Source: an uncultured Collinsella sp. | GTDB taxonomy: Bacteria > Actinomycetota > Coriobacteriia > Coriobacteriales > Coriobacteriaceae | NCBI GenBank assembly: GCA_900546755.1 | Contig: UREC01000009.1 | Span: 69 to 64,068 of the forward strand | DNA: 64,000 bases | Direction of reading: 5' to 3' | Part shown: piece after piece, positions 10,871 through 35,450 of the stretch | Position numbering within the stretch: position 1 is the stretch's first letter | Layout of the letters: each line of letters starts with the position of its first letter | Program-made: the position numbers and the translations under genes | The notes under the pieces: model-generated | The model's input: the letters and a program-made list of their open reading frames with translations, nothing else | Database searches by the model: none | Told to the model about the DNA's origin: nothing

Positions 10871-10941
10871 CTGCGCTTCCTTTCTCTCTAACGTGGGCGC
10901 GTTTCCCTCTTCCACAGGGAACCGCCCTTTTTTGTGCCGCT

Positions 10942-11217
10942 TTAGGCGTTAGCGGCGGCCGCCTTGATTGCCTCGAGGGCGTCTTCGCGGATCTTCTTCT
11001 TGTTCACATAGCTGCGAACGATCACAACGTTGCCGTGGAGCTCGGGGGCGAGTTCCTTAACGGTGATGAACAGATCCGGATTTGCGGAAGAAGCACCGTT
11101 CAGGTCCATAGACTCAACGTCGGCCTTGATGCCCTCCTCCTCGCAAAGCTCCTCGACTTTGCCAGCGAGCATCAGGCTGGACCCGATGCCGTTTCCGCAT
11201 ACGGTGATGATATGCAT
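10942..11217 (-). CDS. PTS sugar transporter subunit IIB (UlaB/SgaB-like)
   Basis: 'MHIITVCGNGIGSSLML' with the active-site Cys motif; 91 aa. Confidence 0.9.
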   Translation of the reverse strand: MHIITVCGNGIGSSLMLAGKVEELCEEEGIKADVESMDLNGASSANPDLFITVKELAPELHGNVVIVRSYVNKKKIREDALEAIKAAAANA

Positions 11218-11292
11218 GGCAACCTTCCTCTCCTACACGTGACGGTTTTCCGTCTATCCAAAAGCGGCGACGCATCGCCGTGCCATTAAGGC

Positions 11293-11739
11293 CTAAAAGA
11301 ATGAACGCATGGTCTCCAAAACCTGCTCGGGCGTATCGCATGCGCTGAGCTTGGCAACGCAGTCCTCGTCCTCGAACATCTGCGAAAGCTCCGCCAAGCA
11401 GCCAAGATGAGCCTTGGGGTCGGGTGCGCAAATACCCACGAGCACGTGAACCGGATCGAAATCCTCGTGTCCAAACGCAACGGCTGGGTCAAGCGTGACG
11501 ATACAGATTCCCGCTTCGCTCACATTGCCATCTGCCTGAGCGTGGGGCATGGCGATGCCCTCTTCCAAGACCATATAGGGGCCGAATTTGTGAACCGATG
11601 AAATCATGGCGTCAACATAGCTCTGATCGCATTTGCCAGCGTCTACGAGCAACTTACCGCATGCCCTGATCGCTTCCTCCCAGTCGGAGGCCTCGACGTG
11701 GCAGGCAACAAGCTCGGGCTTAAGAAGATCGGTCAGCAT
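11293..11739 (-). CDS. PTS sugar transporter subunit IIA (PTS_EIIA_2 type)
   Basis: 'GIAMPHA' phosphorylatable-His motif; 148 aa. It follows paralog 2 after a 9-nt gap. Confidence 0.9.
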   Translation of the reverse strand: MLTDLLKPELVACHVEASDWEEAIRACGKLLVDAGKCDQSYVDAMISSVHKFGPYMVLEEGIAMPHAQADGNVSEAGICIVTLDPAVAFGHEDFDPVHVLVGICAPDPKAHLGCLAELSQMFEDEDCVAKLSACDTPEQVLETMRSFF

Positions 11740-11748
11740 GCTCGTCCC

Positions 11749-12459
11749 CTACTCCTCGGGCAGGATATGAAAACCAAGCGCCTGAATGTCGCGGGCAAAA
11801 CCCTTGACCGTATCAAGCGAGTACTCAAGCAAATCTTTCCCGAAATTCTTGCGCTTGGCAAGAAGGGCATTGGGGACCGTAATGATCTGGCATCCAACGG
11901 ACTCCGCCTGGAAGATATTGAGGACCTCGCGCGTAGACGCCCAGAGAACCTCGGCAGCAGGCTTAACGGCAGCCTTCTTTACGGACTCCGCCATGAGGGG
12001 CAGCGGATCGACGCCGGTATCGGCAATGCGACCGGCGAAGATGGACAGAATAGAGGGGGTCTCAGCAGAGACGGCATCGACAAACTCGTCGACCTGTTCG
12101 GGCGTGAAGATCGTGGTGACATTCACCTTGATGCCGTCGGCAGAAAGGCGCTTGACCAGCGCGGCAGTGGACTCACCCTTGGTGTTGAGCGCCGGGATCT
12201 TAACGTAGACGTTGTCTGCCCAGGTTGCGATCTCGCGAGCCTCGGCTTCCATACCTGCCTCGTCGTCGGCGAATACCTCAAAAGAGACCGACACATCAGT
12301 AATGTGCTCAAGAACCGTCTTGGCAAAAGCGCGGTAGTCGGTCACGCCGCCGGCCTTCATAAGGGAAGGATTGGTCGTGAAGCCCTGAACGTTGCCATTG
12401 TCATGCATGTCAAGCATGCCCTCGAGGTCAGCGCCGTCGGCAAACACCTTGATCGCCAT
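11749..12459 (-). CDS. Transaldolase-family protein, paralog 2 (first gene of the PTS operon)
   Basis: Long runs identical to paralog 1: 'MAIKVFADGA', 'NVQGFTTNPSLMK', 'GGVTDYRAFAK', 'HITDVSVSFEVFADD', 'LSADGIKVNVTTIFTP'. Start at the ATG at 12457-12459. Confidence 0.85.
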   Translation of the reverse strand: MAIKVFADGADLEGMLDMHDNGNVQGFTTNPSLMKAGGVTDYRAFAKTVLEHITDVSVSFEVFADDEAGMEAEAREIATWADNVYVKIPALNTKGESTAALVKRLSADGIKVNVTTIFTPEQVDEFVDAVSAETPSILSIFAGRIADTGVDPLPLMAESVKKAAVKPAAEVLWASTREVLNIFQAESVGCQIITVPNALLAKRKNFGKDLLEYSLDTVKGFARDIQALGFHILPEE

Positions 12460-12577
12460 GTTCGGTCCTTTCTCATCTAACACTATTGCTATCGAAAGCC
12501 TTCTTCTTTGTTTCAAAAGCTTTTCGGTTTTCTTTTATAAACTATTTCAAAAGCTATCGAAAGCTCAATTGTCAACT

Positions 12578-12589
12578 TTCCGTGAACGG
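12578..12589. promoter_or_regulatory. Candidate operator motif TTCCGTGAACGG in the divergent PTS/deoR promoter region
   Basis: Same core as 9326-9339, with a second GCGTGAAC at 12601-12608. The intergenic region 12460-12807 is AT-rich. Confidence 0.3.
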
Positions 12590-12807
12590 TCGAATATCGG
12601 GCGTGAACGTACTTCTTTTGGGCGGCACCTTCAGAATGAGACTCTTTATAGCCCGTTTACGTGCGAACTATCTGCTACGCATGCATTTGTGACATGCCAT
12701 TCCGTTCTTTTGATTCATTCGAATTTGCCTTGTTCTTTTCATATCGATACGTTATATTTCGATTACGAAAGGCGCATCTTTTACCTTTTGTTCAAAAGGA
12801 GCGGCAT

Positions 12808-13599
12808 ATGGCATCTACTTCAGACCTTTCACCGGCCGAGCGTCAGCGATTTATCATGAATTGGCTGGCCGAAAAGCCAAATATCTCGGTATCCGACATC
12901 GTTCGCCGTTTTTCGGTTTCGGAAGTCACCGCACGGCACGACCTCATCTCGCTGGAATCCGAAGGCAAGCTGCGTCGCGTACGCGGCGGAGCGGTATCGC
13001 TTTCTCGCTCCAACGCAATCTCGTATCCCGAGGAGCGCATCAATGTCCAAGTCGAGGCCAAGGAGGCCATCGCCGCAACCGCAGCAACTCTTGTTGATGA
13101 TGGCGATGTTCTGGTAATTGATATCGGCACCACAGGCTTTTACTTCGCTAAGGCCCTCATGGACAAGCGTGAGATCACCATTATCACCGGCGATCTTGCA
13201 ATCGCGAACTACGCCAGCTTCAATCTCCCCAATGCTTCGGTAGTGCTGCTGGGCGGCTCCGTGCGCAAGGGGCACCTCTATCTCGCGGGCGCACTGACGC
13301 TCGACTGCATGAGCAAACTACATGCCGACAAGGCGTTTGTCAGTGCCGACGGATTCCACCCCGACCACGGCTTTACCGTCGAGCACGACTTCTCGGCCAT
13401 GATCAAGCATATGTACCTTACCAACTCAAACCAGGGCTACATGATGGTTGACCAGGGAAAGTTCAACAAAACCAGTTTTTATCAGTCCGCGCAGATCGAT
13501 GACCTCGACGGCATCATCGTTGATGGAGACGACGAGGGCATCATGACGGCGGCGATCGAGAGCAGTCGCAGTCATCCCAAGCTCTATATTGCAAAATAG
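12808..13599 (+). CDS. DeoR/GlpR-family transcriptional regulator
   Basis: 'ERQRFIMNWLAEKPNISVSDIVRRFSVSEVTARHDLISLESEGKLRRVRGGA' HTH plus a sugar-binding C-domain. Start set at the ATG at 12808 after AAGGAG. The upstream extension of the ORF track is AT-rich and non-protein-like. Confidence 0.9.
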   Translation: MASTSDLSPAERQRFIMNWLAEKPNISVSDIVRRFSVSEVTARHDLISLESEGKLRRVRGGAVSLSRSNAISYPEERINVQVEAKEAIAATAATLVDDGDVLVIDIGTTGFYFAKALMDKREITIITGDLAIANYASFNLPNASVVLLGGSVRKGHLYLAGALTLDCMSKLHADKAFVSADGFHPDHGFTVEHDFSAMIKHMYLTNSNQGYMMVDQGKFNKTSFYQSAQIDDLDGIIVDGDDEGIMTAAIESSRSHPKLYIAK

Positions 13600-22753: not shown

Positions 22754-22966
22754 CGCCCTACCCTCGCCATTTCTTTAAGAAGCCTTTACGTTTCCGTGTA
22801 ATTCCCGTCCATTATCGCGCAGGTCGCCGCTACATTGCGCAACACCGCCACGCACGCGCGTTATTATGGCTGGTTGTTGTGCGCAGTCACCAAATGCAGC
22901 GCATATCTTGGTAACAATCGGGTAAACCCCCGCTTTCGTAGGTTTTAGTTTGTGAGGAGTCTCAGC

Positions 22967-25267
22967 ATGTTCGCTGCCGCCATCTCGCTCGTCGGTCTTG
23001 CGGCGACCGTCTACCTTGTCTTGCGCGAGGCCAAGGCCATTCGCGCTCAGTCGGGCACCGTTGCCAAAAGCGCTCTTGGATGGAGCGTCGCCTTCGGCCT
23101 GTTCCAGCTCTTTTTGACCGTCTGGGGCGCCATTGGCCTCGTCGCCCAAAACGAGCCGCTCGCCTTTGTGATGCTCATCCTGACCAACGCCATCCTCACC
23201 GGCTGCGCTTGGGCCAGCATCGCCCGCGACCGTATCGCCCCGCGCGTCTTTGCGTTTGCCGCGCCCGATGCCCCCGCCCTCACCGGCAAGCTCGCCCGCC
23301 TGCGCGGCGCCTTTGTGGGCAAACCGCTCGTCGCCGCCGTCTTGTGCCTACTGCTCGCCGGCGTCTTTGCGCTGCTGGGCATGGAGGTCTCGTCCAACCA
23401 CGACTTTACCTGGATCTACCCCCTGTGCATTCTGCTCGAATGGGCCATTATCACCGTGCTCATGGTCGGCTTGTTCTTCCTATTCCAGCGCCACGGCGCA
23501 GCTCCCGCGGTCCTGGCCTTCGCCCTCTTTGTCCTGGGCATTGCCGAGTTTTTCGTCATCACGTTTAAATCCATGCCCATCCAGCCGGGCGACCTTTCGG
23601 CCATCTCCACCGCCGCCGCGGTCGCCGGCAACGGCTACACCTTCTCGATCTCGCTGTTCTGCGTGCTGTCCATGGGCTTTACCGCCATCGCCATGCTGCT
23701 GTGCGAGTACGCCGGCCTGGTGGCACCGCACCGTCAGAAGGGTGCCGCCAACGCCAAGCGCATGCTGCTCACCAACCTGCTCGTGGCAGTGCTGTGCCTG
23801 GGCGGCGTAACCGCGCATGTCACGCTCATCGACTACTACAACACCCTCGGCATCACCGTCTACACCTGGCGCCCGCTCGAGAGCTACTGGCGCGAGGGCT
23901 ACCTGCCCGCTTTCATTAGCGCAGCGCAGTCCATCAAGCCGCCCAAACCCGCCGACTACTCCGTCGACGATGCCAAGGCCACGCTCAAAAAGTACGCCAA
24001 GGCCTACGACAAGTCCGACGCGGCCAAGAGCGACGAGCGCGCCGCCGCAAAGGAGCAGTTCGACAGCGAGAAGCCCACGGTCATCGCCATCATGAACGAG
24101 ACCTTCTCGGATCTGTCAATCTACCAGAACATGCGCGCCGGCTACGAGGGCCCGCAGTACTTTAAGAGCCTGTCCAACTGCCTCAGCCGTGGCAAGCTCT
24201 ACGTGAGCGCCTACGGCGGCGGTACCGCCAATACCGAGTTTGAGTTTATGACCGGCAACTCCATGGCCAACCTGGGCTCGGGCGTGTACCCCTACACCAT
24301 CTACAACATGGAAACGACCGGGAACCTGGCAGAGCAGTTCAAGTCGCTCGGATATTCCACCACGGCCATGCACCCCAACCACGCGACCAACTGGAACCGC
24401 GAGAACGTCTACAAGGACTTTGGCTTTGACCAGTTCCTGTCCATCAACGACTTCCAGGGTGCCGACACCCTGCGCGGCATGGTGACCGACCAGGCGACAT
24501 ACGACAAGATTCTTGAGCTGCTCGACCAGAACGCCGACCCGCAGTTCATCTTCGACGTGACCATGCAGAACCACTCGGGCTACGACACGGGCCTGCTGCC
24601 GGTCGACAAGCAGATGCACCTGAACATCGACACGACCGACCTGGATGCCAAGACCGTCGAGGATGGCACGCTGTCCGATGTCGACGAGTATGTCTCGTGC
24701 ATCGAGCAGTCCGATCAGGCGCTGCGCTACTTCCTCAACGCCCTGAGCAAGCTCGACCGTAAGGTGGTCGTGGTGTTCTGGGGCGACCATCAGCCGTTCT
24801 TCCCGTCCAAGTTCAACGATAAGTGGTTTACCGGCGAGGACGACGCCACCCACCAGGAACGCTTGTGGCAGACCGACTACATCATCTGGGCTAACTACGA
24901 CGTTGCCGGTTGCGACCAGACGAGTGAGGTCGACGACCTGTCCACCAACTATCTGTCCACCCAGCTGATGCAGCTGATCGGCGCACCGCTGACCGACTAC
25001 CAGAAGGCGCATATGACATTGCGCGAGTCGCTGCCCGCCATCAACTCCGTCGGCTACGAGGACGCCAGCCTGCGCTGGGCGCTCTCCTCCAACGTCACCG
25101 GTGATGACGCCGTCGCCGCTGCTGCCACCAAGGCGCGCGAGGATTACGCCAAGATGCAGTATTACGAAATGTTCCGCGACGGCAAGAACGTCTACACCGA
25201 GCACTTCCAGACCGAGGCCAACGAAACCGACCCTAACTTGGCACCGGGTACGACCAAGATCAAATAG
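22967..25267 (+). CDS. LTA-synthase-family protein (polytopic N-domain + extracellular sulfatase/phosphoglycerol-transferase domain)
   Basis: N-terminal multi-TM block, then 'IMNETFSDLS', 'GGGTANTEFEF' and 'HPNHATNWNRENVY'. ATG at 22967, 7 nt after GAGGAG. Confidence 0.85.
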   Translation: MFAAAISLVGLAATVYLVLREAKAIRAQSGTVAKSALGWSVAFGLFQLFLTVWGAIGLVAQNEPLAFVMLILTNAILTGCAWASIARDRIAPRVFAFAAPDAPALTGKLARLRGAFVGKPLVAAVLCLLLAGVFALLGMEVSSNHDFTWIYPLCILLEWAIITVLMVGLFFLFQRHGAAPAVLAFALFVLGIAEFFVITFKSMPIQPGDLSAISTAAAVAGNGYTFSISLFCVLSMGFTAIAMLLCEYAGLVAPHRQKGAANAKRMLLTNLLVAVLCLGGVTAHVTLIDYYNTLGITVYTWRPLESYWREGYLPAFISAAQSIKPPKPADYSVDDAKATLKKYAKAYDKSDAAKSDERAAAKEQFDSEKPTVIAIMNETFSDLSIYQNMRAGYEGPQYFKSLSNCLSRGKLYVSAYGGGTANTEFEFMTGNSMANLGSGVYPYTIYNMETTGNLAEQFKSLGYSTTAMHPNHATNWNRENVYKDFGFDQFLSINDFQGADTLRGMVTDQATYDKILELLDQNADPQFIFDVTMQNHSGYDTGLLPVDKQMHLNIDTTDLDAKTVEDGTLSDVDEYVSCIEQSDQALRYFLNALSKLDRKVVVVFWGDHQPFFPSKFNDKWFTGEDDATHQERLWQTDYIIWANYDVAGCDQTSEVDDLSTNYLSTQLMQLIGAPLTDYQKAHMTLRESLPAINSVGYEDASLRWALSSNVTGDDAVAAAATKAREDYAKMQYYEMFRDGKNVYTEHFQTEANETDPNLAPGTTKIK

Positions 25268-25320: not shown

Positions 25321-25377
25321 GTTCCCTGCTCGGACAGTCCTGCGCAAGACGAAGGCCACATTAAGTGGCCTTCTTTG
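25321..25377. repeat. Left arm of a 56/57-nt near-perfect inverted repeat; contains terminator hairpin gaaggccac-atta-gtggccttc + tttg
   Basis: gttccctgctcggacagtcctgcgcaagacgaaggccacattaagtggccttctttg equals the reverse complement of 25751-25806, apart from one indel or mismatch. Confidence 0.85.
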
Positions 25378-25702
25378 TATTCGGAAAGTGTGTCCCGGAA
25401 TCTGCCTTCGGAATGGGACGCAGTTTCCGCTTGAGGGCCTGTTGGGAAAGCGCATCCCACTTCAAGAGTAAATTCCGGGTCGCACTTTCCGCTAAGGCTC
25501 TCAACCGGAAAGTGCATCCCATTCCAAGCCTTAATTCCGGGACATAGTTTCCGGACAAGACATCAACCGGAAAGTGGGGACCACTCTGAGCGCCGATTCT
25601 GGGACACACTTTCCGAAACACCGCCCATCCGGAAAGCCCGTCCCACTCCGAATACATCCAGGCATAAAATCATCAGCTTATTAGGCCTTCTATCAATAAA
25701 GA
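25378..25702. repeat. BIME-like repeat array, copy A: nine ~20-nt units in alternating orientation plus a conserved tail
   Basis: Units of type GGAAAG(Y)GCATCCCAYTCC alternate with their inverse AATTCCGGGWCRCASTTTCC. The tail is catcagcttattaggccttctatcaataaag. It is collinear with 35131-35450. Confidence 0.8.
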
Positions 25703-25750
25703 GACACCCTCCCGAGCGGCGGGCTCGAAGTTCATCGCGAGTTCCGCACG

Positions 25751-25806
25751 CAAAGAAGGCCACTTAATGTGGCCTTCGTCTTGCGCAGGACTGTAGAGCA
25801 GGGAAC
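25751..25806. repeat. Right arm of the 56/57-nt inverted repeat; serves as terminator for the minus-strand fibre operon
   Basis: caaagaaggccacttaatgtggccttcgtcttgcgcaggactgtagagcagggaac. It lies 45 nt downstream of the P4 stop. Confidence 0.85.
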
Positions 25807-25850: not shown

Positions 25851-26549
25851 CTAGTACTTATCCCTCCGGGACAAAAGTAGCGCGGCTATAAAAGCGATGC
25901 TGGCAAGAGTTAGCAAAACTAAAAGCAACGTGAGCGTGTTGTCGCCCGTTGCCGCCAGACCAAGCAAGCCGGGCTTCTTGCTGTCAGCAGACTGCACGGG
26001 AATCTTCTCGCCATCGTCCTCGGCGGTAATCTCCCAGCGAATGGTCTTGTTTGCGTCGGCAAGCTCGTTGCCCACCGACGTCGGAACGCTTAGCTGCAGA
26101 TTAAGCACCGTGCTGTCATCGCTCGTAAACGTGGCGATTTGCGTGGGATAGGCGAACACGCTGCCCGGTGTTCCTGTCTGGAGCCAACCTGCAGAGGCAT
26201 CGCCCACAGTCGCCGTTAAGGTGATGGGCGATAGCAGATGTGCCGTCTCGTGATCGACAACAGCCCGCACAAACACACGTACCTGGGACTTTACACCCGT
26301 GGTACGAACCCCAATCTGTTGCTCGCGTACATCGCCGGGCATTAGATCTTTAAAGGCTGGAAACAGATCGGGCTCCCCCGAGGAGTCCGTCGCTCCCGAT
26401 ACCGTTAGCTGGCGTGCATTTCCGTCATAGGCAATCGTGGGAACGTCAGCAAACGCACGTGCAGGAACGGCAAGCGCGATAAGGCAGACGATTGCCGCCA
26501 TCACGCAGCGCAAGGAACACACAACGTCTTTACGAATCGGAGAAGCCAT
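25851..26549 (-). CDS. TasA/camelysin-like protein with Sec signal peptide and C-terminal LAxTG cell-wall sorting signal (P4)
   Basis: Signal peptide '...LIALAVPARAFA/DV', core motif 'LFPAFKDLMPGDVREQQIGV', and C-terminus 'LAATG' + 23 hydrophobic residues + 'SRRDKY'. ATG at 26547-26549 after GGAGGTG, 2 nt after the P3 stop. Confidence 0.8.
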   Translation of the reverse strand: MASPIRKDVVCSLRCVMAAIVCLIALAVPARAFADVPTIAYDGNARQLTVSGATDSSGEPDLFPAFKDLMPGDVREQQIGVRTTGVKSQVRVFVRAVVDHETAHLLSPITLTATVGDASAGWLQTGTPGSVFAYPTQIATFTSDDSTVLNLQLSVPTSVGNELADANKTIRWEITAEDDGEKIPVQSADSKKPGLLGLAATGDNTLTLLLVLLTLASIAFIAALLLSRRDKY

Positions 26550-26551
26550 AC

Positions 26552-27121
26552 CTACGCACCTCCATGCGGCGGCACCAGCACGCCATCCTTGACTGTACAG
26601 CCCCATGCCTCTGCAACTGCATCGTCGGGCGTGGATTGAATTGCTTGGGTCGAAATGTCAACGACCAGGTTCTTCCCATCTGCCTTCTGCTCAGTCACGC
26701 TCTTGATGAGCACATCGGTTTTGCCCATCGGAGCAACGGGAGACGTCCAGTAGTAGTACCCGTCGGACGCGACAACCCAAGACGAGGCGGTGTTGGAAGC
26801 AGATGCCTTGGACACACTGCCCCAGTCAATGACGTAGTCGGTGCCGGCAACTGGCTCATCCCACAGGCGTGCGCCATCCTGGTCCTGCCAGTAGATATCC
26901 ACTGCAGCACGAATATAGGCGGGCGCAGTACCCGTGTTCTTCGCCTTGACATCGCTTTTCACTTTGCCGTTGAGCGTTTCCTGAACCGATGGCGTCACCG
27001 ATCCGATGCCGAACTGGTTGACCAGCACGCCCGTAACCGAAAGCCAGGCCAACGTGCCTGCCGTACCGGCCAGGAGGATAACCCCCACCAGCAAGGCGAT
27101 GATGCGCTTGCGCTTGGACAT
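26552..27121 (-). CDS. TasA/camelysin-like protein with SipW-cognate-type signal peptide (P3)
   Basis: 'MSKRKRIIALLVGVILLAGTAGTLAWLSVTGVLVNQFGIGSV', 'VKAKNTGTAPAYIRAAV', and C-terminal 'LVVDISTQAIQS'. AAGGAGGA RBS, 1 nt after the stop of the giant gene. Confidence 0.8.
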   Translation of the reverse strand: MSKRKRIIALLVGVILLAGTAGTLAWLSVTGVLVNQFGIGSVTPSVQETLNGKVKSDVKAKNTGTAPAYIRAAVDIYWQDQDGARLWDEPVAGTDYVIDWGSVSKASASNTASSWVVASDGYYYWTSPVAPMGKTDVLIKSVTEQKADGKNLVVDISTQAIQSTPDDAVAEAWGCTVKDGVLVPPHGGA

Positions 27122-27122
27122 G

Positions 27123-30100
27123 CTAATCCTCCTTCTTTGCTACGTTGCCGTTGCTCCAAACGTTATGGGCACGATCGCTGCCGTCGATCCATTTGTCGTT
27201 CACACGCGTGTTCGTGCAGGTGAACGTGGCATCGTTCGCGCTCGATGCAGACGAAATCGTCAGCTCGGCAGTTTTACCGGGCGCCTTGCCCGGCGTGCTC
27301 AGCTCACCCTGGTAGCGCCATGCCCAAGCCGTATCTTCCTCGACGGTATAGATGCCAGCCGGAGCGGCGAACTGCACGCTGCCGACATAGCAAGTTTCAC
27401 CGTTTTCGTCGCGCTGCTCGCTAACTTTCACCTCGACCATGCGCGTCTCGGCAGGAGAATCCTGCGACATCTTTCGCGTTACCTTAAAGCGGAACGTTTG
27501 CCCCATAGCGCTGGCATCGGTCGTCTTTTTAACGATCGTCAGCGCATGAGTCTGGGCAAAGTTGAACACGGCTTTGCCGGGGCCCTGATCGCCCTCGCCC
27601 GTCTTCTTGGACTCCAGACGGTTGGCCAGGTCGAACGAGCCGTCACCCGAACCAAGGCTGTAGAGCGAGACAAACTTGCCGTTTACGGGCTCTTCCGCCA
27701 CAGAAACACCCTCTGTACCAGGCCCGTAGCTTGCCCGCATTACCGTAACGGTCAGCCGCGTTCCCATAAACGGCTTGGCAAAGCAGACCTTAAACGGCGC
27801 CTTGTCGGCACTGTCATCGACGGTGTTGGCGGCGGCGGGATCGAGCAGCCACTTAAGCTGGGCGGTCATGGTTTCGGACTTCGCGGGATCAGACGTATCT
27901 TTGGCAACCACGCGATATGTAACGGGATACAGGTCCATGTCGCCCTTAATTGGCTCGTCCTTAAACACATCCCAAGGCTTCGTATCACCATCGGCGCCCA
28001 CATATCGCCACTCCAAGAAGAGCTCACGCATATCGCCATTGGCGGCCGCACGCTCATCGAGCAGCGCGACGATCTTGGAATGGGCGTCCGGGTCGTATGC
28101 CACGGACTTTTGCTCCATCATGGGATTCCCGCTGTTGTCATAGACGGGGCGGCCGTTCTCATCCATTTTGGGAACATCAACCGTATAGACGAAGCCGGAC
28201 TTGCCGTCCTGCGCACGCTCGTCGCCCGAGTCGACCGTCGCCGTAAAGAGAACCGACCCGTCGACACCGTGATAGCGCACCTTATGCGGCGCAATCTTGT
28301 ACACCGCAGTGTACATCGCGCTCTTAAAGGGCTCATTGCCCTCGAGGGGATACTTGTCGTCACCGGTCATCAGGGTGTACTTGTTATCGGATTCATAGTC
28401 ACGCGACCAGCAGACAAAGTCGTACTTGGTGCCATCCTTGCCGACAACCTCAGTTGCAGCTTTTACCTCCAGCGAAATTTGATCACCAGAGTCGGTCCGC
28501 GAAAGATAACGCACAGAACCGGGGTCATCCAGATTGGCATCGATATTCGATTGAACACGCACCGCGCTGGCGCGGTAGACCGGATACAACTCCATGGGGG
28601 CCTTGACCACGGTGCTTTTATTCACCATGGAAACGTCGTCCGACCAAACGACATAACCGTTGCCAGCTACCGGCTTAGTTTCCGTCCAGCCCACGAAGGC
28701 ATTGTATGCGTTTGTTGCAGCATCGATATCGCCGACGTTATACGTTGGCAGCGGGATGCCGTCCTTAAGGCTGCCGAGAGAATCGCCCTGCTGGGCTACC
28801 TTACCGTCCACATCCCTGGCATTGAGATGGTACACAACCGCCAACGGCGAATAGTACGCCACGAATGTATAGGCTCCGCCAGGTTCCACCGGATAAGAGC
28901 AAGTACCATGCTCCACATCGTAGGGAAGCGTCTTGATCTCGCCGTTCGGAAGCTCGATCTCAACCTTCTGCAACTTATACAGCTCACCGCCTGCTTTATA
29001 AACCGGCGTCGTAACGTCAGGGGTCACCGTTGCCGTAGCAGGATTGGTGTCCGCGTTGATAACGGGAGCGATGTTGTAGCTAGGCACATTGACCTTGTCC
29101 GTACCCTCAAAACCTGCGCGATGCAGGTTGGTGGTGTAGCTGACGTCGTACTTTGCGTAGACGGGATAGGCATCCTGCCACTGGGTGACCTTGGACTCGT
29201 CGGTCGCCAGATACGGCTCTGCCTTATCCGGATCACTCGTCACATAGGAGTCGCCGGCGACGTCGTAGATATACTTCCAGACGTCAGAATCCTTCTGAAC
29301 CTCGGCGGTCGAAATCCAGCCCAGGAACTTATAGCCCGGCACGGCCATGTCGGCATCGGTCGGGGAAGCTTCGAGGGTCAGGGGGCTCTCATACGATCCC
29401 TTCTCACCATCTTCTGGCTTTTCGGCCACTTTAACCGACTTATTAACATGCGGGTAGTAATACGTGAACGTCGGATCCGCCCCGTTCACCTTGGTCTGCA
29501 GCAAGTTACTCTCATAGCGCCGCGTGGCAGTCCTCACGACATTATCGCCCTTGTTGTAGAAATTAACGTCCGTGGTAATCATCGCGCGAACGTAGTACTT
29601 CTTATCTGTACGCACCATGCTCTCGATGGGATTTTTCACATATGTCCAATATTCACCATCGCGCTCAAGCGTCCAGAAATTCAGGCGATAGCGATCATTC
29701 ACCGGTTTGACCGTTACGTTCAGCGAAGCCGAAGTCCAAGTATCGCTTAGCGTTGCAGCGCCTGGAAAATCGGTATCGGCATAGAGGTTTTTTAGAGTAT
29801 CGGCTCCCGTATCGTTTTTAACGTTGTGCGAGTACGCGTTAAGGGGACTCACGACAAGGGTTTCCTTCGTGAAGCGCGTGCCACACGTTTCATAACTATC
29901 CTTTATACCGTGGTCAACATGCTCCGGGCCCCAGTGGACGACGTTTTCACGCACGAAGGTACTACCGACGTTTTCCTCAAAGGGCGTTTGATAGCGATTC
30001 CAAACGGAACAAAGTAGCTTGCTGTCCGTAAACTCATGGTTGGTATAAGCCCGAACGTAATAATCCACTCGGTACTCAAAGCGGGCGATGTAGGTATGCG

Positions 30101-32594
30101 GCGCGGTTAAATCGACATCGGCGGGGAGCGTATAGCTGGGGTCGCGGCTTACGCGCACCTCGAGCGGGGCATCCTCGGTTCCCTTGTTTTCATACCAACC
30201 CAGGAAACGATAGCCGTCGGGCAGCTGGCCCTCCTCGGATATAGCTTTACCGGATACGTCGAGCACCCGTACGGTATACGCGCTTGTGCCATCCTCGGCA
30301 GTCTCAACCTTAACGTCAGTTTTGCCCACACCGTCGCGCCGAGTCTGATCGTCGGTTGCATCCTGCTCATTGCCCTCAAACACCGTCATGATGTTCGACA
30401 CATAGTCGGTGTACACCGGATAAAAATCGGTAGGACCAAGCACAGTGATCTCGGTGCCGGCAGGATAGAACGCACCGGCGTTTTTTAGCTCGGCAAGCTT
30501 AGGCGAGGTGATGGCCGCGTAACCGCCATGCATCCCGGCCTCGCCACTCGGCTGCGTCGTCCAACCGATAAAGGTGGCGCTGGCGGAAAGAGTGCCGCGG
30601 TCCGCAGGGGCAGCCGGCGTTAAACCGACGCCATAGCGGTACCAGTCCGTCGACTTGTCGTGCTCCTCGCCGCTCTGCCACGCGAGCGTCTCGCCCTTGA
30701 CGTTATAGAACAGTACCTGCGCCTCGTACGAAGCAATAAACAGGTCGTTGCCCTTAAAGGCCTCGGCCCCCTTCGCGTTATCGGCGGTATAGGTCGACGT
30801 TATCTCGTGCGCTTCGTTCTTCTGGACCTGCTTGCCAGCCTTAACGGCATCGGCATCGGTCTTGCCGTTAAACCAGGCGTTATCGGCATCGATACGGTTC
30901 ACATTGACTCCGGACTCGCGGAACCAGCCCATGAAGCGATAACCGCCGTTGGCATCGGTCAAGCCCTTGGGCTTTGCGGAGGTATCCTGCCTAAACGTCA
31001 CCGATGTATCGCCCTGGGCCAAGCCCTGGGCCGTTCCCGCCAGCACGGCGCTCACGGCAAAGGCGTACGGATCCGAGGTCGCTTGATCAATACCGAGTTT
31101 GGTTGCCGTAATTGTCGCGGTACCCGCACCGGGAAAATCGATCGTCGCCTTAACGCTCTGGCCATGCACAGGAATATTCAGCTTGTAATCCATCGCCCAC
31201 TCATTGGGGTGCGGGCCATCCAGGGTCCCGTCGTTAGCAGTCGAGCGCATGGTGCCGGCACAGAAGTCGTAGTCGTGCTCTTCCCACAGCTCGCGCGTGG
31301 TGTAGCGCTCGTCGTCCCATGGACCATAGCTGTCGCCCTTGGTGGTACCGTCGCCGCCAAAAGAGGGGATCTTTTTCTTAGCCGCGGTACCCTGGCTGCT
31401 GCCTTTTAGGCTCACGCTCGGCTTAAAGTAGCACTCGGTGACCGTGGCATCATCCTTGTTGGCACGCGCGGCAATACCGCCCAGGTTCACATCGTTTTGA
31501 ATGATGGGGATCACGGCGATGGGATTGTACTGACGCGAGCTCAAGTCACCCGCAAAATGGCTTCGAACGAGCTCGTTGCCCTTTTCGGTTAGAATACGAC
31601 CCGCCAAGCCACCCGTCCACGCACGCGTCACGGCGACGACGCCCACATATGACGCGGCATAGCTGTAGCACTGCGCCGTCGAGAAGCAGTCGATAATCTT
31701 GGCCTCGCCCGCCATGCAGCCCACAAAACCCGAGGCGTACACGTTGTTGCCGCCCAGGGCGCCAATGGCCACGTCGTACTTATTGGTGACGTCGGTCATG
31801 CCAATCGAGCCATCATCTTTGCGCGTAGGCGTAACGCGGCAGTACTCAATCGTCGAATTTGTAACGTAGCCGGCAAACGCCGCCATATACAGACCCTCAC
31901 CGCCGAGCGCCTGCACGCCCGAGGTCGTGTTGTTAACGGCGCGGCCACCACGTACCTCGCAGTTATAGAGGGTACAGCCGTCGAGCTCGCCGGCGATGAG
32001 ACCGCCCTCAAAGCCTGCGTTGGTAATGAGGTTGAGAGCATTGTTGGCGCAGGTCACGTGCAGCGTGCTCTCCATGACCATAACGTTTTCGAAACGCGTT
32101 TTGACGGCCTTGCCCACGATAATGCCACCGCGGAAGTCCGCCCACACGTTGGCGTCCTTGACCAGGAAGTTTTTGATGGTGGCGCCGTTGGTCTCGGCAA
32201 AAAATCCCGTATCGCGCTCGGGGTCAAAAGCGTCTTTATCGTAGTTCAGGCCCTCAACGGCGTGGTTTTGACCATCGAACACGCCCTTAAACGGATGCTC
32301 CTTGTTGCCAAACGACAGATGCTTAACGGTGTCTGCAACGATGGTTTTCATGTCGTCGCTGTCGAGCTCAATGTCGTTATCGAGATAAACGTGCCAGCCG
32401 GACGTATCGTGCTCGCGCGACAGCGCCACACACGACAAAAAGTCAGCCTCGTTTTTGATGTGGAATTCGATTTTGGCCTCGGGCACATCCTCGGCATGCA
32501 CCACCGTTGGCAGCGCCATAACGCAGCAAAGGGCAATCGCTGCGACGGCAACCAGCCTGCTAAGCATACCCCGGTTCATATTCTTGATCTTCAT
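27123..32594 (-). CDS. 1823-aa secreted surface protein: signal peptide, GLUG-motif region, multiple InlB-B/Listeria-Bacteroides-type repeats, C-terminal Cna-B/prealbumin-like domain; no LPXTG or TM anchor
   Basis: Signal 'VAVAAIALCCVMALPTVVHA/ED'. N-terminal module 'FKGVFDGQNHAVEGL'. GLUG-like repeats 'GGIIVGKA', 'GGLIAGEL', 'AAFAGYV', 'SGFVGCMAG', 'GGLAGRI', 'GGIAARA'. B-repeat hallmarks 'YRFMGWF', 'FIGWTT', 'YRFLGWY', 'YKFLGWIS', 'FVGWTE', 'FVCWS' with recurring 'YPVY'. C-terminus 'TFRFKVTRK...GIYTVEEDTAWAWRY'. Confidence 0.85.
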   Translation of the reverse strand: MKIKNMNRGMLSRLVAVAAIALCCVMALPTVVHAEDVPEAKIEFHIKNEADFLSCVALSREHDTSGWHVYLDNDIELDSDDMKTIVADTVKHLSFGNKEHPFKGVFDGQNHAVEGLNYDKDAFDPERDTGFFAETNGATIKNFLVKDANVWADFRGGIIVGKAVKTRFENVMVMESTLHVTCANNALNLITNAGFEGGLIAGELDGCTLYNCEVRGGRAVNNTTSGVQALGGEGLYMAAFAGYVTNSTIEYCRVTPTRKDDGSIGMTDVTNKYDVAIGALGGNNVYASGFVGCMAGEAKIIDCFSTAQCYSYAASYVGVVAVTRAWTGGLAGRILTEKGNELVRSHFAGDLSSRQYNPIAVIPIIQNDVNLGGIAARANKDDATVTECYFKPSVSLKGSSQGTAAKKKIPSFGGDGTTKGDSYGPWDDERYTTRELWEEHDYDFCAGTMRSTANDGTLDGPHPNEWAMDYKLNIPVHGQSVKATIDFPGAGTATITATKLGIDQATSDPYAFAVSAVLAGTAQGLAQGDTSVTFRQDTSAKPKGLTDANGGYRFMGWFRESGVNVNRIDADNAWFNGKTDADAVKAGKQVQKNEAHEITSTYTADNAKGAEAFKGNDLFIASYEAQVLFYNVKGETLAWQSGEEHDKSTDWYRYGVGLTPAAPADRGTLSASATFIGWTTQPSGEAGMHGGYAAITSPKLAELKNAGAFYPAGTEITVLGPTDFYPVYTDYVSNIMTVFEGNEQDATDDQTRRDGVGKTDVKVETAEDGTSAYTVRVLDVSGKAISEEGQLPDGYRFLGWYENKGTEDAPLEVRVSRDPSYTLPADVDLTAPHTYIARFEYRVDYYVRAYTNHEFTDSKLLCSVWNRYQTPFEENVGSTFVRENVVHWGPEHVDHGIKDSYETCGTRFTKETLVVSPLNAYSHNVKNDTGADTLKNLYADTDFPGAATLSDTWTSASLNVTVKPVNDRYRLNFWTLERDGEYWTYVKNPIESMVRTDKKYYVRAMITTDVNFYNKGDNVVRTATRRYESNLLQTKVNGADPTFTYYYPHVNKSVKVAEKPEDGEKGSYESPLTLEASPTDADMAVPGYKFLGWISTAEVQKDSDVWKYIYDVAGDSYVTSDPDKAEPYLATDESKVTQWQDAYPVYAKYDVSYTTNLHRAGFEGTDKVNVPSYNIAPVINADTNPATATVTPDVTTPVYKAGGELYKLQKVEIELPNGEIKTLPYDVEHGTCSYPVEPGGAYTFVAYYSPLAVVYHLNARDVDGKVAQQGDSLGSLKDGIPLPTYNVGDIDAATNAYNAFVGWTETKPVAGNGYVVWSDDVSMVNKSTVVKAPMELYPVYRASAVRVQSNIDANLDDPGSVRYLSRTDSGDQISLEVKAATEVVGKDGTKYDFVCWSRDYESDNKYTLMTGDDKYPLEGNEPFKSAMYTAVYKIAPHKVRYHGVDGSVLFTATVDSGDERAQDGKSGFVYTVDVPKMDENGRPVYDNSGNPMMEQKSVAYDPDAHSKIVALLDERAAANGDMRELFLEWRYVGADGDTKPWDVFKDEPIKGDMDLYPVTYRVVAKDTSDPAKSETMTAQLKWLLDPAAANTVDDSADKAPFKVCFAKPFMGTRLTVTVMRASYGPGTEGVSVAEEPVNGKFVSLYSLGSGDGSFDLANRLESKKTGEGDQGPGKAVFNFAQTHALTIVKKTTDASAMGQTFRFKVTRKMSQDSPAETRMVEVKVSEQRDENGETCYVGSVQFAAPAGIYTVEEDTAWAWRYQGELSTPGKAPGKTAELTISSASSANDATFTCTNTRVNDKWIDGSDRAHNVWSNGNVAKKED

Positions 32595-32597
32595 AGG

Positions 32598-33245
32598 CTA
32601 GTTCGCCTCCGGCCAACCCACAACGTCAAGTACGTCGAGGGCGGTATCGCTTGTCTGCTGGTTTTTGGCCTGCACGGCCTGAACATCGATATCGAGCTTG
32701 AATGAGCCGCCGCGCGCGGCATCGTGGTAGTCGCCCACAAATCGCAGCGAGTCCATAAGGCTTTCCGTCATGGCGCCGGGGTCGAGCATGCCGCCACGCC
32801 CGGCCAATCCACGGTAGTAGTACCACCCATCGCCGCCGTCGATCCACGGGGACCCCTCGTCCGCGTTCACATGAAACGCAACGCTGCCCGAGGCATCCGC
32901 ACTCGAACCGTCGGGTGCCACTGACGTCATGCGTAGACGAGCGCGAACGTACTCAGGCTGCGCGCCGGCGTTCTCCACGCGTACAATGCGGCTGATGTCA
33001 GAGCCCCCGGCCTTGGTGTCGGGATAGTCCCCGCGCTCGTTGGCCTCAAACGGAATCTCCTCGCCCCGCTCGTTGAGGGTGTATTCGCAGACTCGTACCT
33101 TCACGCTGCCAAACGATAGGACGTTGTTCGCCGGAACCATATCAACGGTAAAAGCCAGCGTGCCACACATGCACGCCAGGGCCAACAGCGCAATCGCGGC
33201 AAGCGCCAAGGTGCGTTTCTGATTGTCGGAAAGATTGTTGAGCAT
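32598..33245 (-). CDS. TasA/camelysin-like protein with SipW-cognate-type signal peptide (P2)
   Basis: 'MLNNLSDNQKRTLALAAIALLALACMCGTLAFTVDMVPANNVLSFGSVKV', 'VRVENAGAQPEYVRARL', and C-terminal 'FKLDIDVQAVQA'. The start could be the ATG at 33243-33245 or the TTG at 33257, and the RBS is weak. Confidence 0.75.
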   Translation of the reverse strand: MLNNLSDNQKRTLALAAIALLALACMCGTLAFTVDMVPANNVLSFGSVKVRVCEYTLNERGEEIPFEANERGDYPDTKAGGSDISRIVRVENAGAQPEYVRARLRMTSVAPDGSSADASGSVAFHVNADEGSPWIDGGDGWYYYRGLAGRGGMLDPGAMTESLMDSLRFVGDYHDAARGGSFKLDIDVQAVQAKNQQTSDTALDVLDVVGWPEAN

Positions 33246-33265
33246 TACGTTCGCCAATCGTCGAT

Positions 33266-33332: not shown

Positions 33333-34097
33333 TTAAGCCTGAGCCTGAGTCTTAGCCCATTCCTTGGCCTGCTTAAGGGCATTCTGCGCGTCAGCATTTT
33401 CACCCTGCTCGGTGCCATTCTGGCCCGCGCCAAAGATGTAGGCAGAGACCGTCATCGTGGGAGCCTGTTTCGGGTCAGTAGTAGTCTCGACAACATCGGT
33501 GTTGTTCATGGCAGAGGGAATCGTCACGGCAGTGAAAAGCTCATCGGTATAAACGTCCTGCTCTGCTTTGTTGGCTTCGAGCTTTGCAGGCAGGTTCTCT
33601 GCGGCAGAGTTCTTGGAGTACATAAACAGACCGCTCACGTACTGGTTGCCAGAGTTGTCAGATTGGTTGGTCTTGACTTGACCCTCAACGGGCTTCCAAT
33701 TCGTATTTTTGAGCGTAAAGTACGGGGTCTTTTCAAGGCTGGTGCCAGGCTTGACGATGGCATTCTTTACGTAAATGAATACGTATGCATCATCAGAGCC
33801 AGCCTTGATGCCGACATTGGGGTTCTTGGCCACAGTGGCGCCAGGAACCATCTTGGAGTTGGCAACCCACTGGGTCTCGAACAGGTAGGCCTTTTCAGTG
33901 TTCGGATTATCGGGGTCCGGTTTCTCGGGATCGGTCGGATCAGGCTTGTTTTCCGGGTGGCCAAAGCTACCCACCGTGAACACGTTGTCAATGTGCTCCT
34001 GCGCCGTCAGCCATGCATAGGTACCCACACCGGCGGCCATCACCAACAGCAGCAGGGCGGCAATGATGCCGTAGCGCTTTTTCTTCTTGTTTTCCAT
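33333..34097 (-). CDS. TasA/camelysin-like protein with SipW-cognate-type signal peptide and Pro/Asp-rich linker (P1, putative major subunit)
   Basis: 'MENKKKKRYGIIAALLLLVMAAGVGTYAWLTAQEHIDNVFTVGSFG', then 'HPENKPDPTDPEKPDPDNPNTEK', 'KMVPGATVAKNPNVGIKAGSDDAYVFIYV', and C-terminal 'TMTVSAYIFGAGQ'. ATG at 34095-34097 after AAGGAAG. The 71-codon upstream extension in the ORF track overlaps sipW and is Arg/Gly junk. Confidence 0.8.
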   Translation of the reverse strand: MENKKKKRYGIIAALLLLVMAAGVGTYAWLTAQEHIDNVFTVGSFGHPENKPDPTDPEKPDPDNPNTEKAYLFETQWVANSKMVPGATVAKNPNVGIKAGSDDAYVFIYVKNAIVKPGTSLEKTPYFTLKNTNWKPVEGQVKTNQSDNSGNQYVSGLFMYSKNSAAENLPAKLEANKAEQDVYTDELFTAVTIPSAMNNTDVVETTTDPKQAPTMTVSAYIFGAGQNGTEQGENADAQNALKQAKEWAKTQAQA

Positions 34098-34168: not shown

Positions 34169-34726
34169 CTATGAACGCCGCTCCCTCGCATGCGCGCGGG
34201 CATGCTTGCCCGCAGGCTCGTCGGGAACCACCCGATCGAGCACTATCGACGCCGCGACCAGCAGCGCCAGAACGGCCACCACAACAAGCAAACCGGGCAT
34301 CGTCGTGCAATATGCGTTAACGAAGCCCAGGTAAGGGACACAAAAAGAGACAGTGCCGATCACGCGTGAAAAAGGCGTCTGCTCGGCATCGTGCATGATG
34401 GTTCCATCTGCATTTTTGTTTGCGATTCCCTGCGTGCCGATCGTCTGCGCGGCAGGGTCGATCTCGTACACCTGGTGCGTCACCACGGCGCCGTCCGATC
34501 GGTAAAAGGTTGCATTGTCGCCCACGGTAATATCCGTTGGCTCAACCTGGCGGACAAACACCATGGAGCCAACGGGAAGATCGGGTTCCATAGAGCCCGA
34601 AAGCACAGCAAAGGGCATGTATCCAAATGCGCGAGGCACAAAAGAAACAACGGCAAGGGCTATGACAAGCGCGAACGCCAAGCTACTCAAAAGTGCAATA
34701 AATCGTTTGAGTCTACGCGCAGCCAA
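34169..34726 (-). CDS. sipW: Signal peptidase I, SipW/archaeal-ER type
   Basis: N-terminal TM, 'AVLSGSMEPDLPVGSMVFV', a downstream 'VTHQV' His, and the C-terminal TM 'GLLVVVAVLALLVAASIVL' that is typical of SipW. The start is an apparent TTG at 34724-34726, and no in-frame ATG precedes the TM. Confidence 0.8.
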   Translation of the reverse strand: MAARRLKRFIALLSSLAFALVIALAVVSFVPRAFGYMPFAVLSGSMEPDLPVGSMVFVRQVEPTDITVGDNATFYRSDGAVVTHQVYEIDPAAQTIGTQGIANKNADGTIMHDAEQTPFSRVIGTVSFCVPYLGFVNAYCTTMPGLLVVVAVLALLVAASIVLDRVVPDEPAGKHARAHARERRS

Positions 34727-35130: not shown

Positions 35131-35450
35131 GAAAACCGTGTCCCAGAATTCCCGTCCGGAGTGGGATGCGGCTTCCGCTTGTGGCCCCGTTGGGAAGCCG
35201 TATCCCGCTTCGATCACAAATTCCGGGTCGCACTTTCCGCCAAGACCCTCAACCGGAAACTACATCCCATTTCTCGACCGAATGCTGGGATGTAGTTTCC
35301 ACAGAGCCCTTCACCGGGAAACCGCATCCCATTCCAAAGGCAAATTCCGGGACGCAGCTTCCGCAACCCCACCCATCCGGAAATCCCATCCCACTCCGCA
35401 CACATCCGGGCATAGAACAATCAGCTTATTAGGCCTTCCATCAATAAAGG
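35131..35450. repeat. BIME-like repeat array, copy B (collinear with, and in the same orientation as, 25378-25702)
   Basis: Same nine alternating units, for example gggaagccgtatcccgcttc / aaattccgggtcgcactttccg / ccggaaactacatcccatttc. Same tail, aatcagcttattaggccttccatcaataaag. Confidence 0.8.

Follow-up and report, generated by a model that had tools for sequence, protein, structure and literature searches.

A 64-kb stretch of DNA from an uncultured Collinsella sp. (64,000 nucleotides, hereafter the window) carries on its minus strand an apparent operon for a TasA-type fibre, the last gene of which we call P4 (positions 25851–26549, stop codon included; 232 aa according to the list of open reading frames (ORFs) and its translation). 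We favour, with moderate confidence, the reading that P4 is the terminal component, anchored in the cell wall, of a pilus-like fibre system of the SipW/TasA type in Collinsella. How TasA-type fibres stay on cells is unsettled: in Bacillus the part played by TapA is under debate, BsaA is anchored in the membrane, and for archaea there are only predicted anchors. A covalent, sortase-made link has so far been suggested only by gene neighbourhoods and AlphaFold 3 (AF3) models. To these our analysis adds a large protein family without a Pfam or NCBIfam model, a fixed last-gene position, interchangeable wall modules (a sortase signal or SLH domains) and a linked sortase gene in some lineages, which turns wall anchoring into a specific hypothesis that can be tested in Collinsella aerofaciens, an abundant commensal of the human gut, and in its relatives.

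The sorting signal at the C-terminus of P4

The predicted P4 precursor begins with an ordinary Sec signal peptide (basic n-region, hydrophobic core and ARAFA/DV) and ends in LAATG, followed by an aspartate with 23 hydrophobic residues (203–226) and a basic tail. A first-pass annotation, made from the DNA letters and ORFs alone, had described both ends in this way, and the translation agrees: the AxA signal PARAFA/DV is present at residues 29–36, the two core strings that it quoted, LFPAFKDLMPGD and LNLQLSVPTSVGNE, lie at residues 62–73 and 149–162, and LAATG, the hydrophobic stretch and SRRDKY are where it had placed them. It had also held that the signal peptide is not of the SipW-cognate type, and P4 indeed has no match to the corresponding model TIGR04088, whereas P1, a TasA-like paralogue from the same operon, does. 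We place the start at the ATG at 26549, which has GGAGG 8–12 nt upstream and the stop codon of the preceding gene, P3, 2 nt before it; an alternative 251-aa reading from an ATG at 26606 would overlap the end of P3. That 251-aa call from 26606 appears in several database entries as a gene-calling variant, and one JGI entry labels P4 'preprotein translocase subunit SecE', a mis-annotation.

In every one of 120 close homologues of P4 (82–91% identity), L[AV][AVT]TG is preserved, and so are the hydrophobic stretch and the basic tail behind it. LAATG is the commonest form (81 sequences), followed by LVATG (34), LAVTG (2), LATTG (2) and LVVTG (1), with valine at motif position 2 in about 30% of the set, a departure from the textbook LAXTG. 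In all, 328 P4 homologues were found at E ≤ 1e-3 in a 90%-identity protein collection, and the family, large and uncurated, comprises 582 representatives of 50%-identity clusters. T-[GSN]-[DE] followed by a hydrophobic/basic tail of 18–45 residues is present in 105 of 149 family representatives, and a 91-sequence alignment of the family shows no variation at T201 and G202 and at least 90% conservation of D203. Other conserved positions of this alignment lie in the core (Y41, at least 90%; L62, F63, P71-G72-D73, P156 and W172), and the core motifs of the family are V.YDG, DLF..FK.lMPGD, VP...GNE and W.F.AE. The curated LPXTG_anchor model TIGR01167 is passed or approached by 27 of the 91 P4 relatives and the Pfam model Gram_pos_anchor (PF00746) is matched by 10 of them; P4 itself matches neither, both models being built around LPXTG and not LAXTG. 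NF053819 (the EF0750 family) was considered as a model of the P4 family and rejected: 26 of the 91 relatives match it, only across the signal peptide and the anchor.

The module that follows the conserved domain can be exchanged. On the same N-terminal domain, SLH domains replace the sorting signal in P0160, P0173, P0202 and P0243 (E 4e-15 to 4e-39), and in P0188 and P0197 stalk domains (Cna_B or FctA) come between the P4-type N-terminal domain and LPQTG or PQTGD. The motif also differs between lineages: L(A/V)xTG predominates in Collinsella, and 80 Firmicutes-like relatives from gut metagenomes have mostly PPPTGD, PPQTGD or PPKTGD. LAXTG is the motif of class E sortases (PMC5148588) and (S/P)PxTG that of a clostridial class B sortase, SrtB of C. 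difficile (PMC4155245, PMC5118464); judged from sequence, the P4-family motif tracks lineage-typical sortase specificity. Some Collinsella strains further encode an fn3/FG-GAP protein of ~1350 aa, unrelated to P4, that ends in NLA(G/N)TGD, a membrane segment and KRRK. Its gene adjoins the operon, upstream of sipW in locus L001 (1–1361) and just downstream of P4 in L037 (11135–15190), and is absent at those two positions in the window.

In three lineages the next gene after the P4-type gene encodes a sortase (loci L090, L145, L168 and L169; Table 1). The family-wide conservation of the P4 C-terminus, the alternative modules in the same place, the lineage-linked motif, the sortases linked to some loci and the like signal on an unrelated protein support its reading as a real, conserved sorting signal and wall-attachment module, as the first-pass annotation had proposed.

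Against the anchored role must be set the failure to find a sortase near P4 itself. A six-frame scan of the window by motif and phmmer, of limited sensitivity, turned up no sortase-like ORF, in keeping with the earlier statement that none lies there, and the same scan found no second ORF with a sorting signal; a scan likewise limited in sensitivity found no sortase in 80 Collinsella genomes at a distance of up to 10 kb from P4. Even of the 48 metagenome loci that extend 1.5 kb or more downstream, only 1 has a linked sortase, which suggests that the enzyme for P4-type proteins is normally encoded elsewhere. Our first sortase motif expression was too strict (it missed TLFTC), and looser motifs with phmmer seeds at first missed class B sortases. 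Since such enzymes were missed in related loci, we treat the absence near Collinsella P4 as a limited-sensitivity result, and linked sortases may be undercounted because their detection in the flanks relied on few seed sequences and motifs. A 192-aa ORF in L086 with an 'LSLVTC' motif was examined as a candidate sortase and rejected, being a TasA-like paralogue. We found no literature on sortases of Collinsella or Coriobacteriia.

The outcome of these scans in the window and in the flanks of the 80 Collinsella loci would also suit a P4 C-terminus that is a plain membrane anchor, as for the BsaA oligomers of C. perfringens strain 13, with no sortase acting in Collinsella. The scores of P4 below the curated LPXTG-anchor models and the alternation of alanine and valine at motif position 2 point the same way, and BsaA oligomers are indeed membrane-anchored and not wall-anchored (PMC11580942). 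We nevertheless think this quite improbable: an invariant T-G and a conserved aspartate before the membrane segment are unnecessary for a plain anchor, and operon-linked sortases in three lineages, SLH domains standing in for the signal in some relatives and an LAxTGD signal on an unrelated Collinsella protein all speak for a wall-directed signal.

The P4 operon and its counterparts in other lineages

The operon reads sipW-P1-P2-giant-P3-P4, and gaps of only 1–3 nt separate the genes for P2, the giant protein, P3 and P4. Aligned together, P1–P3 and the corresponding proteins of other loci form a single TasA-like family marked by GT.A[WYF]...N.F(T/S).G; the SipW-type signal motif of P2 and P3 (GTLA[FWY]...N.F) was recognised by eye. 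Neither P1–P3 nor the giant protein carries a sorting signal. When genome loci were sought with a subset of the P4-family alignment, the best 80 all came from Collinsella or Coriobacteriaceae, which places the source organism in the aerofaciens group of Collinsella, and a homologue search with the alignment of the paralogues (A3) returned solely close Collinsella homologues of P3.

The gene order is conserved in more distant relatives: a SipW-type peptidase, two to five TasA-like paralogues, a giant adhesin, a P3-like paralogue and, last, a P4-type gene. In each of the 7 deep lineages the P4 homologue is immediately preceded by a P3-like gene. Individual loci with a P4-type last gene are L002/L003 (P4 homologue 36% identical), L085, L086/L087 (28%), L088, L090 and L091. 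L086/L087 encodes two Peptidase_M73 proteins above cut-off together with a giant protein containing a VWA domain. The metagenome set comprises 80 loci, which are not independent samples; clustering of their P4 proteins gives 7 groups at 50% identity and 28 groups at 70%. Of the 64 metagenome loci that extend 700 nt or more upstream, 57 have a TasA-like ORF ending no more than 200 nt upstream of the P4-type gene; the other 7 have no TasA-like gene directly upstream, and in at least 6 of these the P4-type gene follows the giant gene. Where at least 9 kb of upstream sequence is available, a SipW-type peptidase was found in 20 of 21 loci and a giant protein with a conserved C-terminal module in 21 of 21. 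Synteny kept in 7 lineages below 50% identity supports the assignment of P4 to a SipW/TasA-type fibre operon, and in this respect the earlier view of the locus has held. In the Coriobacteriia-like loci L002 (11319–17289) and L003 (3775–9814), a type II-A CRISPR-Cas system (Cas9, Cas1, Cas2 and Csn2) comes directly after the operon.

It could still be supposed that P4 is a small surface protein in its own right, whose gene shares a transcript with the fibre genes and which has no physical connection to their products, and the P4 family does have no annotated function. We regard this as highly improbable, given its strict last-gene position after a P3-like gene in 7 deep lineages, with genes that overlap or are spaced by 2 nt; this conserved position is hard to explain other than by a functional link of P4 to the fibre genes.

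The giant proteins of four distant operons (that of the window and those of three other lineages) have in common a C-terminal module of ~130 aa, with the pattern F.F.V ... P.G.Y.V.E ... W.WRY ... CTN ... D.W ... S ... N.F. Their N-terminal parts differ, being Glug/Flg_new-like in some and containing a VWA domain in L086, where the giant protein also has a faint SpaA/prealbumin match at its C-terminus. The conserved module is a candidate for the domain that couples the giant proteins to the fibre.

The fold of P4 and its proposed place in the fibre

Given the family alignment, AlphaFold2 (AF2) modelled full-length P4 at a predicted local distance difference test (pLDDT) score of 86, with a signal helix at residues 7–27, a nine-strand sandwich at 38–178, disorder at 180–200 and a membrane helix at 204–229; the core-only model reached a pLDDT of 92.8 and a predicted template-modelling score (pTM) of 0.84. 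In a Foldseek search of the PDB with the full-length model, the first three ranks went to the AbpA bundling pilus (7ueg; E 2.3e-3, probability 0.99), the Saci_0406 thread (7pnb; E 6.3e-3, probability 0.82) and TasA (5of2; E 7.9e-3, probability 0.99), at template-modelling (TM) scores of 0.23–0.37. For the core model, the highest TM among the hits listed was again that of AbpA 7ueg (TMq 0.44), and TasA 5of2/5of1 scored 0.36–0.38. Alignment of the P4 family with 12 TasA-like paralogues from the same operons by hhalign gave 80% probability and E 1.4e-5 over 29 columns only, and 2 of the 91 P4 relatives match PF12389 (Peptidase_M73) at E about 1e-3; P0180 does so at E 0.035 over the PGD region. 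The best available reading of the model is that the P4 core is a TasA-superfamily-like sandwich, which we do not take as established because the Foldseek and hhalign support is weak.

Several findings count against P4 as a component of the fibre. The likeness of P4 to TasA-superfamily structures is weak throughout (E ≥ 2e-3, TM ≤ 0.44); with the core model every hit had an E-value of 1e-3 or more, and similar scores went to sandwiches of the CUB, GOLD and unknown-function kinds. The hhalign match is confined to the 'MPGD..V.N.G..Y.R' hairpin, a motif that occurs in other Ig-like families too, and faint matches to choice-of-anchor D, ASH and DUF11 were also seen. Against Pfam and NCBIfam, including their LPXTG-anchor and TasA/camelysin models, P4 gave zero matches, and two features of P1–P3, the SipW signal and the donor-strand motif N.F(T/S).G, are missing from it. 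Further searches were likewise negative: P4 does not match the TasA-superfamily models (PF12389, TIGR04090 and related), neither P4 nor any of its 91 relatives matches the TapA/YqxM model TIGR04087, and the P4-family profile has no significant match to P1, P2 or P3 taken singly. Profile searches of PDB sequences with the P4-family alignment (A1) or the paralogue alignment (A3) did not retrieve TasA, which we attribute to excessive sequence divergence.

The first-pass annotation had called P4 a TasA-like paralog with a camelysin-like core. The latter description is not borne out by sequence, with neither a Pfam nor an NCBIfam match to show for it; the former is weakly supported: AbpA and TasA come at or near the top of the Foldseek ranking, at modest E-values and low TM, the hhalign match covers 29 columns, and there is no Pfam match. 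A structure prediction of P4 alone, which it had suggested, did yield a confident beta-sandwich, of weak likeness to TasA (TM ≤ 0.44).

P4 might instead be a sortase-anchored docking or assembly factor, such as a TapA-like nucleator or a receptor for the C-terminal module of the giant protein, that takes no part in strand exchange; an ordinary Ig-like domain would then bind the adhesin, or else a short P3 adaptor, without a covalent link. The weak evidence for a TasA-like fold would fit such a role, as would the lack in P4 of the donor-strand motif and SipW signal of P1–P3, the adjacent and tightly coupled genes for the giant protein, P3 and P4, the conservation of the giant's C-terminal module, and the 7 of 64 loci that have no TasA-like gene directly before the P4-type gene, at least 6 of them with the giant gene there. 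We consider it unlikely all the same: the best-ranked structural matches of P4 are donor-strand fibre subunits, the V.YDG strand is highly conserved (Y41 in at least 90%), as expected of a functional strand, and AF3 predicts strand-complemented oligomers for an analogous LPXTG anchor (bioRxiv 10.64898/2026.01.04.697558).

If P4 is the wall-anchored end of the fibre, it would be exported by Sec and cleaved at AFA/DV by the general signal peptidase, and its C-terminal segment would keep it in the membrane. A housekeeping sortase encoded elsewhere would cut between Thr201 and Gly202 and join Thr201 to a peptidoglycan precursor; we infer that this presumed enzyme is of class E, since the P4 motif is LAxTG. 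The P4 core would bind the cell-proximal end of the fibre, most likely P3 and probably by beta-strand complementation, with the conserved mature N-terminus V.YDG as the candidate donor strand. P4 would in this way end the fibre and give it a covalent hold on the wall, with P1/P2 as the shaft, P3 as an adaptor and the giant adhesin at the distal tip; the sortase would serve to anchor the fibre and not to polymerise it. A polarity that would fit the data has the N-terminal strand of each subunit inserted into its distal neighbour. Under that polarity the tip protein would need no SipW signal, and P4 would donate its V.YDG strand while its C-terminus faces the wall through a flexible linker of 15–20 residues. 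The base-subunit role by strand exchange, like the class E assignment, is something that we infer.

A wider view can be offered more tentatively, as a possibility in which we have limited confidence: that these loci represent a third, widespread class of Gram-positive pili in gut Coriobacteriia and Clostridia-like relatives. Such a pilus would have a SipW-processed, donor-strand shaft of TasA-like subunits, an interchangeable giant tip adhesin docked through its C-terminal module, a P3 adaptor and a strand-capping P4 terminator fixed to peptidoglycan by a housekeeping sortase that serves anchoring only, never polymerisation. If this is true, strand-exchange polymerisation and sortase anchoring would be routinely combined in monoderm bacteria, and the 1823-aa adhesin that the apparatus would display may matter for attachment to host or mucus.

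Flanking elements and known anchoring systems

A GC-rich hairpin shortly past the P4 stop codon (Table 1) is a possible terminator of the operon; a terminator scan did not list it on the minus strand, its T-run being too short. The whole sipW-to-P4 operon is flanked by a direct repeat of ~300 nt (25385–25684 and 35133–35432; 75% identity, spacing 9748). Its downstream copy lies within an element of ~460 nt (25334–25794) that has 53-nt inverted repeats at its ends (94% complementary); a GAAGGCCAC/GTGGCCTTC hairpin lies in each arm, and further inverted repeats lie inside the element. This element looks like a miniature inverted-repeat transposable element or a structured intergenic repeat, and Rfam gave no credible match to the repeats that flank the operon. 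Converging on the end of P4 is a plus-strand gene (22952–25267) for an LtaS-like protein of 771 aa that has several membrane passes in its N-terminal region and carries a Sulfatase domain (PF00884, E 5e-42); this neighbour is also present in L001.

Table 1. Features of the P4 operon and of related loci (coordinates refer to the window unless a locus is named; CDS, coding sequence)
Feature	Position	Strand	Basis or remark
SipW/archaeal-type signal peptidase I	34169..34726	-	TIGR02228, 75.3 bits vs cut-off 51.85; Pfam Peptidase_S26
P1, TasA-like paralogue, candidate major subunit	33333..34097	-	TIGR04088, 30.2 bits vs cut-off 19; Peptidase_M73, E 0.0017
P2, TasA-like paralogue, SipW-type signal, start codon uncertain	32598..33257	-	weak TIGR04090 match; paralogue alignment A3
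Giant 1823-aa secreted protein, putative distal adhesin	27123..32594	-	ordinary signal peptide; no sorting signal
P3, TasA-like paralogue, SipW-type signal	26552..27121	-	weak TIGR04090 (BsaA family), E 9.4e-6
P4 CDS, candidate wall-anchored end-subunit	25851..26549	-	ORF, translation, homologues
P4 ordinary Sec signal peptide, residues 1–34, predicted cleavage AFA/DV	26448..26549	-	sequence; AF2 helix 7–27; no TIGR04088 match
P4 beta-sandwich core, residues 35–183	26001..26447	-	AF2 core model; invariant columns
P4 flexible linker, residues 184–197	25959..26000	-	pLDDT about 49–66 in full-length model
P4 LAATG sortase motif, residues 198–202	25944..25958	-	T201 and G202 invariant family-wide
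P4 Asp203 and hydrophobic membrane segment, residues 203–226	25872..25943	-	sequence; AF2 helix 204–229
P4 positively charged tail SRRDKY, residues 227–232	25854..25871	-	homologue tails include SRRDKR, SRRNKR
GC-rich hairpin GAAGGCCAC-ATTAA-GTGGCCTTC then TTTG	25755..25777	-	about 75 nt past P4 stop; part of inverted-repeat element
Giant-protein C-terminal module region, window	27123-27800
Giant-protein C-terminal module region, L002	8656-9333
Giant-protein C-terminal module region, L086	8672-9349
Giant-protein C-terminal module region, L090	8642-9319
L090 sortase	12423-13034		divergent, H...TLFTC...R, below all class cut-offs; overlaps end of P4-like gene
L145 sortase, class B	7334-8068		188.6 bits vs cut-off 153.75; downstream of P4-type gene
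L168 sortase	10943-11848		phmmer-only homologue of the L145/L169 class B sortase; downstream of P4-type gene
L169 sortase, class B	10640-11503		183.6 bits vs cut-off 153.75; downstream of P4-type gene

Several known systems share part of the role proposed for P4. In diderm bacteria, anchors and terminators such as Mfa2/FimB (type V) and PapH (chaperone-usher) are likewise last subunits that stop a strand-exchanged fibre and fix it to the envelope, but they do so through a lipid or an usher in the outer membrane and are unrelated to P4 in sequence, so the analogy is functional only. Basal pilins such as SpaB resemble the proposed P4 in being small terminal subunits with a sorting signal that a housekeeping sortase transfers to the wall, and sortase-assembled pili carry a large tip adhesin, often with a VWA domain, to which the L086 VWA giant with its faint SpaA-like C-terminus may be compared. 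The shaft of such pili, in contrast, is polymerised covalently by a class C sortase, where the P4 system has a SipW peptidase and TasA-like subunits instead. TapA of B. subtilis (tapA-sipW-tasA) is, like P4, an accessory of a SipW/TasA operon, to which both the nucleation of TasA fibres and their retention at the cell surface are attributed; unlike P4 it is SipW-dependent, encoded by the first gene, devoid of a sortase signal and bound non-covalently, and neither Foldseek nor the model searches matched it to P4.

Closer parallels come from clostridia. Most C. perfringens strains have a bsaB-like gene with an LPXTG motif beside srtB, and it has been speculated that its product anchors BsaA oligomers to peptidoglycan (PMC11580942, preprint); the same source reports that LPXTG proteins and sortases are encoded near TasA-family genes. 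These BsaB-like loci (PMC11580942; PMC7395162) share with P4-type loci a sipW gene, one paralogue with a sortase motif and an adjacent class B sortase. BsaB itself differs from P4 in being a recognisable BsaA/TasA-family member in a SipW-type context, whereas the P4 family has no TIGR04090 match. Strain 13 differs further, having lost the motif, with membrane-anchored fibres and an srtB that is dispensable for polymerisation, and the bsa operon, unlike that of P4, has no giant adhesin gene.

For bacterial abpX loci, both LPXTG- and SLH-type anchors have been described, and AF3 predicts that the LPXTG protein of C. amylolyticum forms strand-complemented oligomers with the fibril subunits (bioRxiv 10.64898/2026.01.04.697558). 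This anchor (UniProt A0A1M6GRE1) resembles P4 in its sortase motif, its TasA-superfamily locus, which also encodes minor subunits and a signal peptidase I of its own, and its proposed role as cell anchor. Its locus differs from that of P4 in having a peptidase with 10 transmembrane segments, a DUF5305 accessory protein and AbpX-type subunits, with no giant adhesin reported; the two anchors were compared by their descriptions, and the C. amylolyticum anchor is, like ours, purely computational. Sortase anchoring of TasA-superfamily fibres has thus already been proposed in two preprints, neither of them experimental, and the first-pass claim that P4 would combine two assembly logics normally seen apart, though it stands as a proposal, is less new than it was made out to be, since the combination had already been put forward computationally (PMC11580942; bioRxiv 10.64898/2026.01.04.697558). 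New with respect to both preprints are the P4 family, the Collinsella operon and the giant adhesin with its conserved module.

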